Assembly: GCA_964522195.1 (NCBI GenBank)
Contig: CAZFSV010000001.1
Location: forward strand, 44,680-108,679
Direction: 5' to 3'
DNA from: an uncultured Candidatus Saccharibacteria bacterium
Lineage (GTDB): Bacteria > Patescibacteriota > Minisyncoccia > Phycocordibacterales > UBA9973
DNA: 64,000 nucleotides
The notes under the pieces: generated by a model
Databases searched by the model: none
What the model saw: the letters and a program-made list of their open reading frames with translations, nothing else
Told to the model about the DNA's origin: nothing
Shown here: in pieces, positions 11,937-51,439 of the stretch
How the letters are laid out: every line of letters starts with the position of its first letter
Position numbering within the stretch: position 1 is the first letter of the stretch
Position numbers and translations under genes: made by a program

Positions 11937-12099
11937 CACTCTAGCGGGTTAGTGCAGGCTAGGAACTTTTGTGTATCAAAAGGCTCCCAGCCATTGCGAT
12001 AGACCGAAGTCTACCCGTATAAGTTTCCCTATACGACCCGCTAGAGTGACTCTGACTGGGAGTCCTTTGATCTCTAGCGGGAGATTTGCGACCATGCCT
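11937..12099. other. GC-rich structured repeat element (13-bp inverted repeats cactctagcgggt/acccgctagagtg plus third partial copy)
   Basis: Abrupt GC-rich block in AT-rich DNA. A perfect 13-bp inverted repeat at 11937-11949/12036-12048 encloses ~85 nt with sub-hairpins (tagac-UUCG-gtcta on minus strand, cgtata...tatacg). ctctagcggg recurs at 12071-12082. Confidence 0.4.
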
Positions 12100-12528
12100 C
12101 AAATAAATAAGGTTTAGGTCTTCTATTCAATTGTTAATGAAATTATACCTTATTTTCAAAGGTCCTGCATCTTAGCTTAATCCTTGAGATTTGTGTAGTC
12201 ATTAAAAATCCATCTGTGGATAACTTTTGATTTTTTATTTACACACCTTTTTGTATTAAAACTAGGTCATCTTTCTTAAAAGAAAAATCACAAAAATTCT
12301 ATTTACACTACTGACAGAATTTCTGTGATTTTTTGTTTGCAATAAAAAATATGTGTGTATAAAATACAAATATAACTAAATTGTGAGATTTTAATATCCC
12401 TAAACTGTTTGAGTAAGATCGGTCGATGAAAAGATCAAACTCGGAAGTGGGATATTTTTATTTCAACTTCACTTAATTGAGAACTAAACTGACTACCTAA
12501 ATTGAATTAAAAGCTAATTCAAAATTTT

Positions 12529-24865: not shown

Positions 24866-24955
24866 TGGCGGAGAGAGCGAGATTCGAACTCGCGGTCCTG
24901 TTTAAGGGACGACGGTTTAGTAAACCGTTGATTTAAACCACTCATCCATCTCTCC
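24866..24955 (-). tRNA. Type II (long variable arm) tRNA, Ser-like, apparent anticodon ACU
   Basis: GGAGAGATGGATGAGTGGTTTAAATCAACGGTTTACTAAACCGTCGTCCCTTAAACAGGACCGCGAGTTCGAATCTCGCTCTCTCCGCCA. Acceptor 7 bp, T-arm GCGAG/TTCGAAT/CTCGC, G73, encoded CCA, 3-bp D-stem typical of tRNA-Ser. Anticodon loop TTACTAA reads A34-C35-U36. Confidence 0.65.
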
Positions 24956-25021: not shown

Positions 25022-25111
25022 GGAGCCGTGGGAGAGTGGTCTAATCTACCTCTTTGCTAAAGAGGCAGGCTGTAAAAGGCCTCGAGGGTTCGAATCCCTC
25101 CGGCTCCGCCA
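25022..25111 (+). tRNA. tRNA-Ser(GCU)
   Basis: GGAGCCGTGGGAGAGTGG...CCTCT-TTGCTAA-AGAGG anticodon arm (GCU), long variable arm, T-arm AGGGTTCGAATCCCT, G73, CCA encoded. Confidence 0.85.
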
Positions 25112-43428: not shown

Positions 43429-44973
43429 ATGAATAATCAAACTAGAAAATTTTTTATATATACTCGCAAATCTACCGACACCGAAGATCGGCAAGTTAGA
43501 AGCATTTCGGATCAACTGGCCGAATTAAAAGAATTGGCGGTAAAAGAACAAATTGAGGTTATAGATATTTTTGTGGAAAAACAAACTGCTAAAGCTCCGG
43601 GTCGGCCAGTATTTAATGAAATGCTTCTCCGTATCGAAGCAAATGAGGCAAATGGAATTTTAGCGTGGCATCCCGATAGATTGGCTAGAAATAGTGTTGA
43701 TGGTGGTAAAATAATATATTTGCTCGATACAGGGAAAATTACCGAGCTAAAGTTTCCAACTTTCTGGTGTGATACAACTCCGCAAGGTAAGTTCATGCTT
43801 TCTATTGCATTTTCACAATCCAAGTATTATGTGGACAACCTAAGTGAGAATATTAAACGAGGTCATCGTAACAAAGTGAAAGAAGGAATATGGCCTCAAA
43901 TGTCGCCGATTGGATATGTAAATGTGAAAGGTGCTGGAATTGTACCCGACGAGAATATTGCCCCTTTAATCAAGAAAATATTTGAGGCCTATGCAACTGG
44001 AAATTTCACTTTGCGACAACTTCACGATAAGTTTAATGCTCTTGGATTGAGTAGAAAGAATAGAAAGGTGCTTTCCGTTTCCAACTACCAACAAATTTTG
44101 AGAAATCCGATATTCACTGGCTTAATGAGATATGGTGGTGAAATCTATGAAGGAAAGCACAAACCGATTATCACAAAGAAACTTTTTGATTCCGTTCAAG
44201 AAGTGATGAGCCGAAAATCTAAACCGCATAGCAAAGGACTAAAGTCATTTTTGTATAGAGGATTTTTCCGTTGCGGAGAATGCGGCTGTTTCATTACTAC
44301 CGAAACACAAAAAGGTCATAACTATTTACGATGTACTAAACGGAAAAATCCTTGTGAACAAAAATATGTCCGCGAGGAACTCATCACTTCTCAAATTAAG
44401 GAAGAAATCAAAAAAGTTTCTTTACCACTCGATTGGGCAAATTGGATGATTGTCGAAAACGAAAAAGACCGACAATCAGAAAATCAATCGAGTGAGATTT
44501 TTTCTCAAAAAACAAAAGATGAAATTTCTCTTTTGGATTCAAAAGTTGAAAAGTTGATGAACTTATATTTAGAAAATGTTTTGTCTTTAGAAGAATATCG
44601 AGATTCTAAAAATAAGTTAGTTAATCAAAAACAACTTTTAAAAGAGAAATTATCAGCTTTTGAGAAAAAATCTCATAATCGGTTCGAACTTACCGAAAAT
44701 TTTCTAAAAGCTAATATTCATATCGTGGAATTGGCTAACGAGAAAACAAATGAAGAAAATCTTCATTTGTTTAAAAAAGTCGGTTCGAACTTTTTAATTA
44801 AAGATCGAACCGTACTTTTTGAGCCACGCTCTGCGTGGCGAACCCTTTCAGATTCAGGATTTTTTGGGGGGAATTCAGAACAGACGGCACTTCGTGCCGA
44901 CCATATTTTTTGCGGAAATTTGAATTCCGATTTGTTGCGGAGGGTGGGAGATTCGAACTCCCGATGCCCGTGA
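43429..44973 (+). CDS. Large serine recombinase, paralog of 22089..23366 (C-terminal ~50 codons read through repeat B2/tRNA; true C-terminus uncertain)
   Basis: YTRKSTDTEDRQ...SISDQ catalytic domain, recombinase domain, zinc ribbon CGECGC...LRCTKRKNPC, coiled coil; ~45% identical by eye to first recombinase in N-terminal 100 aa. Confidence 0.8.
   Translation: MNNQTRKFFIYTRKSTDTEDRQVRSISDQLAELKELAVKEQIEVIDIFVEKQTAKAPGRPVFNEMLLRIEANEANGILAWHPDRLARNSVDGGKIIYLLDTGKITELKFPTFWCDTTPQGKFMLSIAFSQSKYYVDNLSENIKRGHRNKVKEGIWPQMSPIGYVNVKGAGIVPDENIAPLIKKIFEAYATGNFTLRQLHDKFNALGLSRKNRKVLSVSNYQQILRNPIFTGLMRYGGEIYEGKHKPIITKKLFDSVQEVMSRKSKPHSKGLKSFLYRGFFRCGECGCFITTETQKGHNYLRCTKRKNPCEQKYVREELITSQIKEEIKKVSLPLDWANWMIVENEKDRQSENQSSEIFSQKTKDEISLLDSKVEKLMNLYLENVLSLEEYRDSKNKLVNQKQLLKEKLSAFEKKSHNRFELTENFLKANIHIVELANEKTNEENLHLFKKVGSNFLIKDRTVLFEPRSAWRTLSDSGFFGGNSEQTALRADHIFCGNLNSDLLRRVGDSNSRCP
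44821..44940. repeat. 121-bp inverted repeat, copy B2, ending at tRNA-Ser(GGA) 3' end
   Basis: Reverse complement of 43287..43407; terminal ...TTGTTGCGG overlaps tRNA discriminator. Confidence 0.85.
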
Positions 44974-45024
44974 AGACATACAGACTTTCCAGGTCTGCGC
45001 ACTAGACCACTATGCGAACCCTCC
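44938..45024 (-). tRNA. tRNA-Ser(GGA), CCA not encoded
   Basis: GGAGGGTTCGCATAGTGGTCTAGTGCGCAGACCTGGAAAGTCTG...CGGGAGTTCGAATCTCCCACCCTCCG. Anticodon loop CTGGAAA (GGA), long variable arm, 3-bp D-stem, G73. Confidence 0.8.
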
Positions 45025-47007: not shown

Positions 47008-49995
47008 ATGTCTTTATTTGATCTAGAATATAAAAAACTAAATTCAAAGCAAAAAGAAGCCGTAGATACTATAGAAGGCCCCGTTATGGTGGTAGCAGGT
47101 CCGGGTACAGGTAAAACTCAGATTTTAACGCTCCGTATTGGAAATATTTTAAGAAAAACTGATACAAGCCCTGATTCAATCCTTTGTTTAACTTTTACTC
47201 GTTCGGGAGTTCGTGCAATGAAAAATCGCCTTTTAGAATACATAGGTACAGACGCTAATAAGGTAAATATTTCTACTTTTCATTCTTTTGCTATAAAAAT
47301 AGTAGAAGAGAATTATGATTTACTTGATTTTGATCAAATACCAAAAATTCTCGAAGAAGACGAAGTAGTTTTTTTGATTGATGATATTTTACAAAATTAT
47401 GATTGGCAATATCTCCGTCCTCGCAACAACCCTCAAATGTATTTTAATGATTTAAAATCTTTGTTTTCTATTTTAAAAAGAGAAAATATTACTGTAGAAG
47501 AATTTTTCTCTCAGGTAGAGCGCGATATAGAGAATTTAAAAAATGACCCTGATAGTATCTCTTCGAGAGGAGAGAGTAAAGGGAAACTTAAAAAAGAAAT
47601 TGAGAAAAAAATAGAAGGTTTAAATAAAACCTTAGAAGTTGTAGAGTTTTATAAAATATATGAAGAGAAAAAGAAAGAGTTTGCTTTGATGGATTATGAT
47701 GATGCCCTAGAGTATGCTCTAGAGATTGTAGAGAATTCTTCTGATGTTAAATCTTCTATTTTTGAAAATTTCCTTTATGTTTTAGTAGATGAGCATCAAG
47801 ACTCAAGTGGTATTCAAAATAAATTCTTAAAAGCAGTTTGGGGTGGAATTGAAAATCCAAATATTTTTGTGGTGGGTGATGATAGGCAACTTATCTATGC
47901 TTTTTCTGGAGCGAATTTGTCTTATTTTGAAGATTTTAAAAATTATTTTGGAAAAGCACATTTGATAACTTTAGTTGAAAATTATCGTTCTACAGAAAGG
48001 ATTTTGAATCTAGCTCATGATTTACTTAAAAGCTCTATTTCACCTGAAAAGTTAAAAAGTAATAAAAAAGAAGATGAAAATATTTATTTAAAAGAATACG
48101 ATTATCCTCGTGATGAAATACTTGGCGCTGCTCTTTATTTTAAAAATCTGATTGATAAGGGGGAGAAGGCAGAAGAGATGGCTATTTTGGTTCCTAAGAA
48201 TTACCATGTCAGAAACGCAACTTCTTTATTGCGTAATATGAATTTACCAGTAGACAATGATAAAAATTTATCTTTATTCTCTTTAAATAAAACTGAATCT
48301 TTTCTTAAAATTTTAAATATTATAGATAATCCTTTTGATAATGTAGCTTTAGGTGAACTTATTTTAGATAAAGTAAGCAATATAGAAATTCTCGAAGCTC
48401 ATAAATTTCTGCGTTCTAAAAAGAAAGAAGAAATTGGGCTTCCCGATTTAATAAATCATACAAATGAGGTAGGTTTATTTGCAGGAGAAAATAATATTTC
48501 TGTGTTTGGCAAATTACTTAAAGTCTTTTTAGATAAAAAAGACGAAAAATTAACAAACCTTTTAAGTGAAATAGGTAATACTTTTTTTATAGATAAATCA
48601 GAAAACCATAAAGAGCTTTTAGAAAATGTTGAATTCGTTAGGACTTTTATTCATTTAGGGAATTTATTTGAGCAAAAGCATTTAAATCCAAAAATTAAAG
48701 ATTTCTTAAAATATATAGGTCGTCTGAAAGAATATGGCAATCATATTGATGTAGCTGTTTTAGGTAAAGAGTCAGGTATAGAAGTTATGACACTACACAA
48801 ATCCAAAGGTCTTGAATATAAATACGTTTGGATTGCTCATATGAATGAAGAAGTTTTAATGTCTCAAAAAAGAATGCCTTTTACTTTACCTGAATATGTA
48901 AAAAATCGCTTAGCGAAAAGAGACATAGAAGACGTTAAAAGAGAGCTTTATGTAGCGATAACTCGGGCAAGAGAATTTTGTACTATATCTTATGCAAATC
49001 AAAATTATACAGGAGGGGAACTTACTTTATCTTCTATTTTAAATGAGCTTGATCAACTTCATTTTGAGAAAAAAAATAGTGAAGAAAATGAGCATGAGCT
49101 TTTAGAAAACAATATTAACGGAGCGAAAATTTTTGCTACTAATTTTGTAGCTCAATTAGAAGACAAGTCTTCTTTAGAAGAAGTGAAATTTTTTGTAAAA
49201 GAAAATTATAAAGACTCGGTGATTTCGGTATCTTTGCTTAATAACTTTTTTGAATGTCCTTGGAAATGGTATTTTAGAAATTTCTTGAAAGTTCCGGAAG
49301 TAAAAAGCATTTCACTTGCTTTAGGTTCGGCAGTTCACAATACCATAGAACATATATTAAAAAATAATAAAATTCCAAAAGAAAAAGAATTATCACATTT
49401 TATTTCAAAAGAACTTCTAAAAGAAGGGGTAGATGATGAAAAAGAGCTTATTCGTTTAGAAAAACAAGCTTTAAATATTATTTTAGATTGGCTAAACTCT
49501 TTTTATAAAAATTTAGAAAGAGAATACAAATCAGAACGATCAGTTTCTTTTAAAGATAAAGATTTAGATATTTCTATTTATGGTAAACTCGACCTTACTG
49601 AATGGCGAGAAGATAAAGCCATAATTATTACTGATTTTAAAACAGGTAAACCAAAGACAAAAAACGAAATAGAAAAAATAGATGAAGAGGGTAGACTTTC
49701 TTCTTATGTGCGCCAACTCGCTATGTATGCGTATTTAGTTTATGAAACCAGTGAGAAATATCCTGAAATTTGCAAATTGCTTTTCTTGGAAGCTGACAAA
49801 GATGATAAAAATAAGATTTATGCTACGAGTATTAATACCGAACAAATTGATTTACTTAAAAAAGATATAAAAGAATATGTTTTAAGTTTAGAAAATGCTA
49901 ATTGGGTAGAAAGAAAATGTAATTTTAAACCTTTTGGCGGCAAAAATGAATCTTGCCCAAATTGCACTCTTGCCCAAAAAATCTTTTTGAAATAA
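47008..49995 (+). CDS. UvrD/PcrA-like SF1 helicase fused to C-terminal RecB/AddB-type PD-(D/E)xK nuclease with Cys cluster
   Basis: Motif I VVAGPGTGKTQIL, II LVDEHQDS, VI VAITRARE. C-terminal nuclease region with KLDLTE..., QLAMYAYL (QxxxY) and Cys cluster CNFKPF...CPNC. Confidence 0.8.
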   Translation: MSLFDLEYKKLNSKQKEAVDTIEGPVMVVAGPGTGKTQILTLRIGNILRKTDTSPDSILCLTFTRSGVRAMKNRLLEYIGTDANKVNISTFHSFAIKIVEENYDLLDFDQIPKILEEDEVVFLIDDILQNYDWQYLRPRNNPQMYFNDLKSLFSILKRENITVEEFFSQVERDIENLKNDPDSISSRGESKGKLKKEIEKKIEGLNKTLEVVEFYKIYEEKKKEFALMDYDDALEYALEIVENSSDVKSSIFENFLYVLVDEHQDSSGIQNKFLKAVWGGIENPNIFVVGDDRQLIYAFSGANLSYFEDFKNYFGKAHLITLVENYRSTERILNLAHDLLKSSISPEKLKSNKKEDENIYLKEYDYPRDEILGAALYFKNLIDKGEKAEEMAILVPKNYHVRNATSLLRNMNLPVDNDKNLSLFSLNKTESFLKILNIIDNPFDNVALGELILDKVSNIEILEAHKFLRSKKKEEIGLPDLINHTNEVGLFAGENNISVFGKLLKVFLDKKDEKLTNLLSEIGNTFFIDKSENHKELLENVEFVRTFIHLGNLFEQKHLNPKIKDFLKYIGRLKEYGNHIDVAVLGKESGIEVMTLHKSKGLEYKYVWIAHMNEEVLMSQKRMPFTLPEYVKNRLAKRDIEDVKRELYVAITRAREFCTISYANQNYTGGELTLSSILNELDQLHFEKKNSEENEHELLENNINGAKIFATNFVAQLEDKSSLEEVKFFVKENYKDSVISVSLLNNFFECPWKWYFRNFLKVPEVKSISLALGSAVHNTIEHILKNNKIPKEKELSHFISKELLKEGVDDEKELIRLEKQALNIILDWLNSFYKNLEREYKSERSVSFKDKDLDISIYGKLDLTEWREDKAIIITDFKTGKPKTKNEIEKIDEEGRLSSYVRQLAMYAYLVYETSEKYPEICKLLFLEADKDDKNKIYATSINTEQIDLLKKDIKEYVLSLENANWVERKCNFKPFGGKNESCPNCTLAQKIFLK

Positions 49996-50000
49996 AAAAA

Positions 50001-50040
50001 GCAGCTTGTTATTAGCAACAAACTGCTCTGTTCTTTTGTT
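50001..50040 (+). terminator. Terminator hairpin after helicase-nuclease gene
   Basis: gcagcttgtt-attagc-aacaaactgc (9/10 bp) followed by T-rich tract. Confidence 0.55.
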
Positions 50041-50195
50041 TCTGAGTACTTAGATGTTTCATTTCCCCAGACGCTAGAGAATCTAGAGGTTAGCGGTCGC
50101 TTGCACCTACCAATAGCTTATCGTAGCTTGCCACGCTCATTATCGCTTTACACTTCCGCACGTATCATTGCATATTTGAAGTGTGTATATAAAAG
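50040..50195 (-). rRNA. Orphan 23S rRNA 5'-domain fragment (~160 nt; pseudogene or 5.8S-like piece)
   Basis: Minus strand reads ...GTGCGGAAGTGTAAAGCGATAATGAGCGTGGCAAGCTACGATAAGC...GGGGAAATGAAACATCTAAGTAC. This aligns to conserved bacterial 23S positions ~30-200 (GGTGGATGCC..GGCGATGAAGGACGTG..CTGCGATAAGC....GAACTGAAACATCTAAGTA). Similarity decays on both sides. Confidence 0.5.
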
Positions 50196-50347
50196 AACTA
50201 AAAATAATTTTAACTTGCATCAAGCATTTGATGCTAAGTTTATCAAAGAACTTTTTGTCTTTATCAAGAGAAAAGACAAGAAAACTACAAATTTAGTTAT
50301 TTCAACTTTTTCTTTTAAAAGAATCAATAACTTGTTTTAGTGTAGCG

Positions 50348-51439
50348 TTGTTTTATATGTTAGTCAATTTCTTGCAAAAAGGCTCTTTTGAGAGTATATT
50401 TTATATATTAAAAAATTTTATGCATAAGAAAGTTAATACTAAATCTAAAGAAGAACTTTTGCGAGATATTGAAAATGAGGATTTTGCTCGTAAGACTTTA
50501 TCTTTTTATAAATACGTCAAAATAGAAAATCCAAAAGATATGAGAGATTTTCTATTTGATAAATTCTCTGAACTTAAGTGTTTAGGTAGAATTTATGTAG
50601 CTCACGAAGGAATAAACGCTCAGATGAATGTGCCTGAACATAATTGGGAAAAGTTTGATTCTTTCATTCAAAATATTCCTGAGTTTAAAGGAGCACCTTA
50701 TAAGGTGGCAGTAGAAGAAGTTGGTAAATCAAGTTTCTTGAAACTTATAGTTAAAGTCCGCCCAAAAATAGTAGCTGATGGACTTGATGATTCTACTTTT
50801 GATCCTGCTAATACTGGGGAATATGCGACGGCTGAAGATGTAAATAATATGATAGATCGTGGAGTTACTGTGATAGATATGCGCAATATTTACGAAGCAG
50901 CTATTGGGCATTTTGAAAATGCTAAATTGATGAATGTAGATACTTTTAGAGAGCAGCTCAAAAAAGTAACGGATATGTTTAAAGACAAAAAAGATGAAGA
51001 AGTCTTGCTTTATTGTACTGGAGGTATTCGTTGCGAGAAAGCTTCGGCTTGGATGAAGCATAATGGTTTTAAAAATGTTAAGCATATAAAAGGAGGTATA
51101 ATTGATTACGCTCATCAAGTAAAAGAAAAAGGATTACAAAACAAATTCAAAGGTAAGAATTTTGTTTTTGATGAAAGAATGGGGGAGAGAATAGGGGATG
51201 AAATTATCTCTTATTGTCAGGCTTGCGAGAAAGCTAAATCCGACGATTATATTCACTGTAGAAACACTTCTTGCCATGTTTTGTTTATTTGTTGCAAGAA
51301 TTGCGAGACTAAGCTTTCTGGATATTGTAGTAAAATTTGCCATATTTGTGATAAATTCCCTAAAAAGGTTAATCAATTGATAGTAGGTAAAAATAGGCAA
51401 AAGCATAAAAATCAATTTAAGAAAAATTATAAAAGATAA
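50348..51439 (+). CDS. trhO: Rhodanese-domain protein TrhO/YceA family (tRNA U34 hydroxylase); true start may be internal Met (MHKKVN)
   Basis: Rhodanese active-site loop YCTGGIRCEKASAWM; C-terminal Cys-rich tail typical of YceA. Confidence 0.7.
   Translation: MFYMLVNFLQKGSFESIFYILKNFMHKKVNTKSKEELLRDIENEDFARKTLSFYKYVKIENPKDMRDFLFDKFSELKCLGRIYVAHEGINAQMNVPEHNWEKFDSFIQNIPEFKGAPYKVAVEEVGKSSFLKLIVKVRPKIVADGLDDSTFDPANTGEYATAEDVNNMIDRGVTVIDMRNIYEAAIGHFENAKLMNVDTFREQLKKVTDMFKDKKDEEVLLYCTGGIRCEKASAWMKHNGFKNVKHIKGGIIDYAHQVKEKGLQNKFKGKNFVFDERMGERIGDEIISYCQACEKAKSDDYIHCRNTSCHVLFICCKNCETKLSGYCSKICHICDKFPKKVNQLIVGKNRQKHKNQFKKNYKR

Follow-up and report, generated by a model that had tools for sequence, protein, structure and literature searches.

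Several described systems involve an RNA that resembles part of the large ribosomal RNA. Ribosomal-protein operons carry autoregulatory leaders (among them the L1 site of the L11 operon mRNA, which resembles H77-78, and the L20 and L10 leaders; RF00558) that copy a local 23S structure outside the ribosome and, like the element described here, have covarying stems and fixed contacts. These are 5′ leaders that act in cis with a minimal binding site, whereas our element stands alone, with an rrn-type promoter-like site and a terminator, and appears to be a true descendant of 23S domain I, not a product of convergence. Truncated rRNA genes and pseudogenes share with it partial duplication of an rRNA gene together with promoter and leader, a variable extent and frequent loss. 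In contrast to them, the element persists between genomes whose synonymous identity is about random, retains H11, H5-H7 or a closed sub-domain, has covarying helices and keeps its leader. The pieces of fragmented 23S rRNA (5.8S-like pieces, helix 9 excision, organellar pieces) are likewise short RNAs of the 23S 5′ part, but they are excised from the sole 23S or take the place of the matching part, with all universal nucleotides retained, whereas the element has lost the 5′ strands of H1-H4, is variable and is optional. Finally, decoy or sponge RNAs (6S RNA, which resembles an open promoter, and CsrB/RsmZ, which resemble CsrA sites) follow the logic proposed below, that of a trans RNA titrating a factor, although the element has neither a sequence or structural relation to them nor their repeated binding sites.

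To our knowledge, all described cases of rRNA mimicry are short sites that act in cis within ribosomal-protein mRNAs, and a literature search for orphan, truncated or split 23S rRNA in CPR and for trans-encoded mimics of rRNA domains found no description. The locus analysed here lies in a 64-kb stretch of DNA, referred to as the window, and apparently represents an undescribed family of 23S domain-I-derived RNA elements in Paceibacteria/Nomurabacteria (Patescibacteria/CPR). It is not a ribosomal-protein leader, because it does not lie in the 5′ UTR of a ribosomal-protein gene: its flanks are a helicase gene and a TrhO-like gene, with no ribosomal-protein gene, and the L20_leader model scores 18.9 bits against a cut-off of 58.7.

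The orphan fragment and its surroundings

On the minus strand of the window (G+C about 30%), 50153..50001 resembles LSU rRNA positions ~50-244, with H5-H7 and H11 kept and H8-H10 gone. The covariance-model check proposed in an earlier note on this DNA gave a local alignment: cmscan of window positions 49600-50700 matched 50139..50001 (-) to positions 53-244 of LSU_rRNA_archaea (clan CL00112) with 41.0 bits and an E-value of 3.1e-10, about 41 model positions (H8-H10) being missing from the alignment. Because this score lies below the Rfam gathering score for LSU of 50, the fragment is recovered by local search only and is reported neither at the gathering threshold nor in evalue mode over the whole window, where the filters remove it. 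A profile built from 15 full-length 23S genes matched 50153..50042 to its positions 49-216 (E 1.2e-5), and the H11-loop 16-mer TGAAACATCTAAGTAC occurs once in the window (50061..50046, -), where 0.06 occurrences are expected even at 2 mismatches. Read directly, minus-strand positions 50195..49990 give GCGUGGCAAGCUACGAUAAGC, a hairpin, CUGGGGAAAUGAAACAUCUAAGUACUCAG and then a GC-containing hairpin with a U-run. The apparent LSU alignment past about position 225 is really this terminator hairpin (50029..49998), and on the 5′ side a weak similarity, corresponding to decayed 23S positions ~15-45, reaches to about 50185.

The earlier note had placed an orphan piece of the 23S 5′ domain on this strand at 50040-50195, running into the terminator of the helicase gene and with the rest of the 23S gene not adjoining. 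The cmscan and profile matches bear this out, the coordinates agree with the reach of the weak similarity, and an intrinsic terminator common to both strands was found. No second LSU or SSU rRNA sequence was detected in the 64-kb window by Rfam, the 23S profile or conserved 23S motifs. A bacterial 23S gene is rejected because the score is below the cut-off and the match does not continue into the remaining gene: domains II-VI are absent, and the terminator and the convergent helicase gene follow directly. An identical copy of the fragment is present in an independent assembly (Logan SRR13355622 contig, L001), and the fragment is therefore not an assembly artefact. Table 1 lists the parts of the element and the flanking genes.

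Table 1. Features of the element and its neighbours, in window coordinates
Feature	Position	Strand	Basis
Promoter-like site TTGACT, 17 nt, TACACT	50339..50367	-	Consensus scan
Leader hairpin, boxB-like, CUUGUCUUUUCUCUUGAUAAAGACAAAAAG	50255..50279	-	MFE and centroid folds
boxA-like GTTCTTTGA	50243..50251	-	Motif resembling rRNA operon antitermination box
Second leader hairpin CUUAGCAUCAAAUGCUUGAUGCAAG	50212..50240	-	MFE and centroid folds
Decayed counterpart of 23S ~1-45, AUACGUGCGGAAGUG versus universal ACGGUGGAUGCC	50140..50195	-	Direct reading
Putative H5-H7 mimic, GCGUGGCAAGCUACGAUAAGC and H7 hairpin	50075..50139	-	cmscan alignment
Putative H11 mimic UCUGGGGAAAUGAAACAUCUAAGUACUCAGAA, invariant core of the family	50040..50071	-	cmscan and 16-mer count
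Short linker ACAAAAGAAC, homologous to 23S GGAAAAGAAA	50030..50039	-	cmscan alignment, folds
Intrinsic terminator, 14-bp stem then U-run, bidirectional with helicase gene end	49989..50029	-	1 site versus 0.2 expected
UvrD-type helicase fused to PD-(D/E)XK nuclease, convergent	47008..49995	+	PF00580, PF13361, PF12705 (identical protein)
UPF0176/rhodanese (TrhO-like), divergent	50421..51439	+	PF17773, PF00581, PF12368

The element spans about 345 nt between promoter and terminator, a compact unit that neither opposes nor precedes a gene on either strand. The -35 box of the promoter-like site, the sequence upstream of it (TTTTTGCAA.AAA) and the -10 box (TACACT/TAGACT) are conserved with locus L006 and partly with L003; as promoter calls these are weak consensus matches, with 5 found against 3.2 expected in the region. 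Part of the promoter region (TTGCAA on the plus strand) probably also serves the divergent TrhO-like gene, whose start codon was set at MHKKVNT by comparison with L002 and L003. The hairpin followed by GUUCUUUGA resembles the boxB/boxA antitermination leader of rRNA operons. A sigma-70-type promoter-like site, a hairpin and a boxA-like motif, together a candidate rrn-type leader, are conserved with L006; the L006 hairpin stands at the matching place and differs in sequence from the boxB-like hairpin of the window. The 9-mer GTTCTTTGA also precedes the rRNA-like part in L006, L010, L019, L080 and L158, so that among the elements of the helicase-locus relatives only those of L003 and L004 are without it upstream, and taken alone it is about as frequent in the window as chance predicts, with 2 occurrences where 1.29 are expected. 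At the other end, modelled folds suggest that the linker ACAAAAGAAC may pair with the upstream GUUCUUUU or with the boxA-like motif and close the RNA, an arrangement that some of the short forms do not share.

On the opposite strand, the element is overlapped by an ORF of 79 aa that starts with TTG (window 50101-50340, +). Gene calling on the identical contig L001 omits this ORF, which is probably spurious, although the L158 fragment (1915-2322) likewise has a called ORF opposite it.

Homologues at the helicase site, the uvrB site and elsewhere

The 80 helicase homologues collected come from Candidatus Nomurabacteria, Paceibacterota and Patescibacteria MAGs, and in 76 of these loci the sequence continues for 400 nt or more beyond the helicase gene. 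An rRNA-like element directly follows the helicase gene on the opposite strand in five of the 76 (L003, L004, L006, L010, L019) and is absent from the other 71, among them L002, whose helicase is the most similar to that of the window (70% identity) and in which TrhO abuts the helicase gene. L080 carries an element elsewhere, 8.5 kb away and convergent with gyrB. Since many relatives are without it, the element is accessory and any function it has is dispensable. The extent retained differs: L003 and L004 (98.9% identical to each other, and therefore too close to be informative on selection) have the architecture of the window, with H5-H7, no H8-H10, and H11; L010 keeps part of H6-H7 and H11; L006 and L080 keep H11 only; and L019 has a 361-nt match to LSU_rRNA_bacteria positions 37-483 with 223 bits.

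None of the 80 helicase loci holds a true 23S 5′ domain. Three loci, L042:1-116, L043:1-897 and L064:1-906 (+), have a real 23S 3′ end and/or a 5S gene at a contig end. These genes share the strand of the helicase cluster and precede it by a few kb, and nothing of 23S beyond the 3′ end is present. In L042 and L064 no orphan fragment was found in the sequence after the helicase gene, and L043 ends at that gene. In L043 (93-451, +) the 23S 3′ region is interrupted between profile positions 2634 and 2635 by some 357 inserted nt, as would fit the introns or insertion sequences that CPR rRNA genes are known to carry. A match in L077 at 15285 lies inside a coding gene and is irrelevant. When spurious ORFs antisense to domain I were used as queries, the matches were confined to short rRNA contigs and two rrn loci from outside the CPR.

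Window-type fragments were also collected by scanning metagenomes for the pattern CGATAAG-N40-70-TGAAACATCTAAGTAC. Complete 23S genes with short H8-H10 accounted for 65 of the 66 matches; the only orphan, L136, lies between a DUF1653 gene and uvrB and covers LSU positions 37-482 (162 bits). Relatives of this second site were picked by UvrB identity. Three lineages carry elements between DUF1653 and uvrB: L136; L158 (UvrB 88%), a long form covering LSU 37-483 with 174 bits; and L148/L149 (UvrB 89%), strongly diverged, in which essentially H11 alone is still rRNA-like (in L148 the rest of the element is no longer alignable). In four lineages, of nine in all for the uvrB site, with UvrB identities of 93, 92, 90 and 85%, DUF1653 abuts uvrB and no element is present. 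At this site the element is co-directional with uvrB and directly upstream of it, with a terminator in between. Flanking genes at the loci other than the window include a small membrane ORF, gyrB, DUF1653 and uvrB. Over about 1.7 Mb of loci, the 23S profile found orphans from domain I only, plus a single L1-stalk piece in L158, and no scatter of rRNA debris from other regions.

The three long forms (L019, L136, L158) share their boundaries, LSU 37-482/483, and each is closed by a different helix of 10-14 bp (AAUUCAAAAG/CUUCUGAAUU, AAAAAUUCUUUGUA/UACAAAGAAUUUUU and GGUUUUCUUUUUUA/UAAAAAAGAAAAACC). They fold into the domain-I helices, with compensatory changes in 26 of 71 consensus pairs, and have in common reductions of H12 and H16-H21 that are absent from real 23S. 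Positions 1-36 are unrecognisable in all three; in the window the corresponding region, 50140..50195, lies outside the covariance-model match. No element retains block 15-36, which is universally conserved in 23S, and no block but H11 is present in all nine. L158 has mutations in the H13 loop, which is also universally conserved. Within the comparison set, the genuine 23S closest to the L019 fragment is that of L135, and its domain I is complete.

Directly after its domain-I orphan, L158 carries a second unit (2625-2935, +) with its own promoter (TTGACA-17-TAGACT) and terminator. It comprises a match to LSU positions 2126-2215 (L1 stalk, H76-78; 50.2 bits) and the tRNA T-arm-like GGTTCGAATCC, and no other copy occurs among the loci examined. 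An isolated H11-like hairpin, GGCUUCGGAGAACUGAAACAUCUAAGUACCCGGGGCC, followed by a U-run, is present on a viral contig of 60 kb and 31% GC (L160:9010-9075, +; IMGVR_UViG_3300050014_001170), between an SPFH/flotillin-like gene and a GIY-YIG endonuclease gene. Its loop is the H11 loop of the elements, on an 8-bp stem. This hairpin would fit an autonomous H11 module; it is a single case and possibly a recent capture.

Selection and covariation

Identity at four-fold degenerate sites, in the helicase gene and at the second site in UvrB, served as the neutral baseline. For the helicase gene it is 0.47 between the window and L003 and 0.34-0.42 between the window and L006, L010 and L019 (0.39 for L006), where 0.38 is expected at random; between the UvrB lineages it is 0.33-0.51 (0.44 for L148), where 0.27 is expected. 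These sites are at or near random, and neutral DNA should therefore be essentially randomised between the carrier genomes. Against the four-fold identity of 0.47, the cores of the window and L003 elements are 78-81% identical over 103-119 nt, and the window and L006 share the promoter, a leader hairpin and the boxA-like sequence despite their random four-fold identity.

The pattern of changes follows the rRNA fold. Across the nine elements H11 has 18 invariant loop positions, while double changes occur in five of the five outer-stem pairs; pairing holds in 88.9% of cells, and the observed score was reached by none of 500 shuffles. H5-H7, in six elements, has 95% of cells paired and changes on both sides in 11 of 15 pairs, again with no shuffle in 500 reaching the score. 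Simple neutral survival of an rRNA pseudogene is excluded by this combination of core identity far above the four-fold sites, shuffle results and an H11 loop invariant in nine elements. Part of the covariation could stem from the genuine 23S gene of each lineage or be refreshed by gene conversion, and a widely varying extent is also what is expected of a decaying relic.

Interpretation and other RNAs in the window

We favour the reading that the element is a selectively maintained, independently transcribed, trans-acting RNA derived from 23S domain I, a mimic of H11 with or without H5-H7, and judge from the sequence comparisons that the chances of this being right are about even. Features of a trans-acting structured small RNA are present, namely a promoter-like site and a terminator, covarying structure and conservation across species, and transcription is predicted. 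In the proposed history, the 5′ end of a 23S rRNA gene, comprising promoter, boxB/boxA-type leader and domain I, would have been duplicated and become a small RNA gene. Long members would have kept a self-contained, helix-closed copy of 23S 37-483, and reduced members, that of the window included, H5-H7 and H11 or H11 alone, directly before an intrinsic terminator. The RNA would be transcribed from its rrn-like promoter, terminated as a small RNA and folded like the matching part of 23S. It could then act in trans as a mimic or decoy of whatever recognises H11 (and H5-H7), titrating or buffering its partner by binding; candidate partners include ribosomal proteins of domain I and, in nascent 23S, the H37 region, which docks on H11 in 50S assembly. 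The protein bL28, which cross-links near 23S positions 195-242, is at most a lead to the partner. Assembly of the 50S subunit begins with domain I, which folds autonomously and binds uL22, uL24 and uL29, and its H11 docks on H37 of domain II (PMC9935924). The presence of a defined K+ site in H11 (PMC6555806) is in keeping with an autonomous motif.

The explanation that survives best beside a maintained RNA is a non-functional relic. Here a duplication or relocation of 23S would have left promoter, leader and 5′ domain behind, deletion would be slow, and the apparent conservation would come from gene conversion or from the terminator and promoter of the neighbours. Its distribution is patchy and its extents very unequal; decay is visible in the degenerate counterpart of 23S 1-45 in the window, the mutated H13 loop of L158 and the almost wholly diverged L148; the terminator is common to the element and the helicase gene, and the promoter region overlaps the TrhO promoter. 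The rrn genes upstream of the helicase cluster in L042, L043 and L064 fit a history of rrn rearrangement in the neighbourhood. On the other hand, with neutral sites at or near saturation, an unselected stretch of 150-400 nt should be unrecognisable or deleted, and the leader 5′ of the rRNA-like part is conserved too. Retention is moreover selective, in that H11 is always kept, block 15-36 is always lost, and the long forms end at a common 37-483 boundary, where each has evolved a new closing helix. Gene conversion does not sit easily with forms that keep H11 only, whose homology of about 36 nt would be too little for it, or with the shared deletions, which persist, so that no conversion tract can have spanned them. 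We regard a relic as possible but rather unlikely. The earlier note's suggestion of a remnant of a disrupted rrn operon, taken as a neutral relic, does not fit homologues at two sites among genomes whose four-fold sites are about random, an invariant H11 loop, covarying stems and a conserved promoter and leader.

A cis-acting element of the neighbouring genes is improbable. It might be an attenuator or leader of uvrB, or an antisense, insulator or bidirectional-terminator module at the helicase end, with only an incidental resemblance to rRNA. The arrangement directly 5′ of uvrB, co-directional and with a terminator between, would suit this, as would the terminator of the window, which serves both strands, and the nature of both main contexts as DNA-repair helicase genes. 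However, no gene lies downstream on the strand of the element in the window, L003, L006, L010, L019 or L080, the sole part kept universally is an exact rRNA hairpin and not the terminator or gene-proximal sequence, and in relatives without the element the flanking genes directly abut. The earlier note had also listed a regulatory element that mimics 23S; the mimic is what we favour, as a stand-alone RNA instead of a cis-regulator.

Least probable of the fuller alternatives, and in our estimate very unlikely indeed, is a ribosomal component, a split 23S in which this RNA supplies part of domain I in trans in the manner of 5.8S or of fragmented organellar rRNAs. The long forms make a neat helix-closed sub-domain, 37-483, behind an rrn-type leader, domain I is the autonomous first nucleus of assembly (PMC9935924), and L158 has a separate L1-stalk-like piece. 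Yet the extent differs by lineage (37-483, ~50-225, H11 only), and every main 23S would then need to have lost the corresponding stretch; universal nucleotides are mutated (the H13 loop of L158, positions 15-45 in the window), the partner strands of H1-H4 are gone, and most relatives have no element at the locus. The intact domain I of L135 counts against a split 23S, as does the description of CPR 23S rRNAs as about 2.8 kb long and without only H9, H63, H78 and H98 (PMC9297842). The 5.8S-like piece raised in the earlier note is thus disfavoured by the variable extent, the decayed H1-H4 5′ strands, the mutated H13 loop of one long form and the lack of the element in most close relatives. As for the remaining candidates, a split by inversion inside 23S is rejected with no 23S within 10 kb upstream in the fragment-bearing loci, and an att remnant of a mobile element with flanks that are housekeeping genes and no integrase seen. 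The remnant of a homing-endonuclease target, considered for the GIY-YIG gene by the phage hairpin, is set aside for the elements and may apply to that hairpin only: in the accessible part of one report, introns of CPR 23S genes lie preferentially in the 3′ half, with no site mentioned in domain I (PMC11270868).

In its widest form, the reading of the element as a trans-acting RNA would hold that Paceibacteria and at least one phage encode undescribed trans-acting RNAs, offshoots of 23S domain I with an indispensable exact copy of H11, whose binding to a ribosomal protein, or to the partner that H11 has in the pre-50S particle, adjusts ribosome assembly or the level of free ribosomal proteins. 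On the present comparisons we advance this only tentatively, as a proposal that may well prove wrong. If it is true, a stand-alone descendant of a whole rRNA folding domain, equipped with an rRNA-type promoter and whittled down to one invariant hairpin, would be a different kind of mimic, H11 would be an autonomous recognition module, and the family would show the birth of new non-coding RNAs from rRNA genes, a route from rRNA to regulatory RNA. It would also give a handle on ribosome assembly or homeostasis in the CPR, a group with unusually reduced ribosomes and biogenesis factors. The L1-stalk-derived RNA, found in one genome, hints that modular 'rRNA decoys' might be a wider strategy in reduced genomes. 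Orphans of this kind are likely annotated as "partial 23S rRNA" and could mislead estimates of rRNA copy number, binning checks and probe design.

Other structured RNAs were found elsewhere in the window. A LOOT RNA (RF03000) lies at 11998-12120 (-) with 76.6 bits and an E-value of 1.2e-12. A tRNA-Ser with anticodon ACU (A at position 34, loop UUACUAA), at 24866-24955 (-), is unusual as a serine tRNA with A34; it is divergent from a tRNA-Ser(GCU) at 25022-25111 (+), and a third, tRNA-Ser(GGA), lies at 44937-45024 (-).
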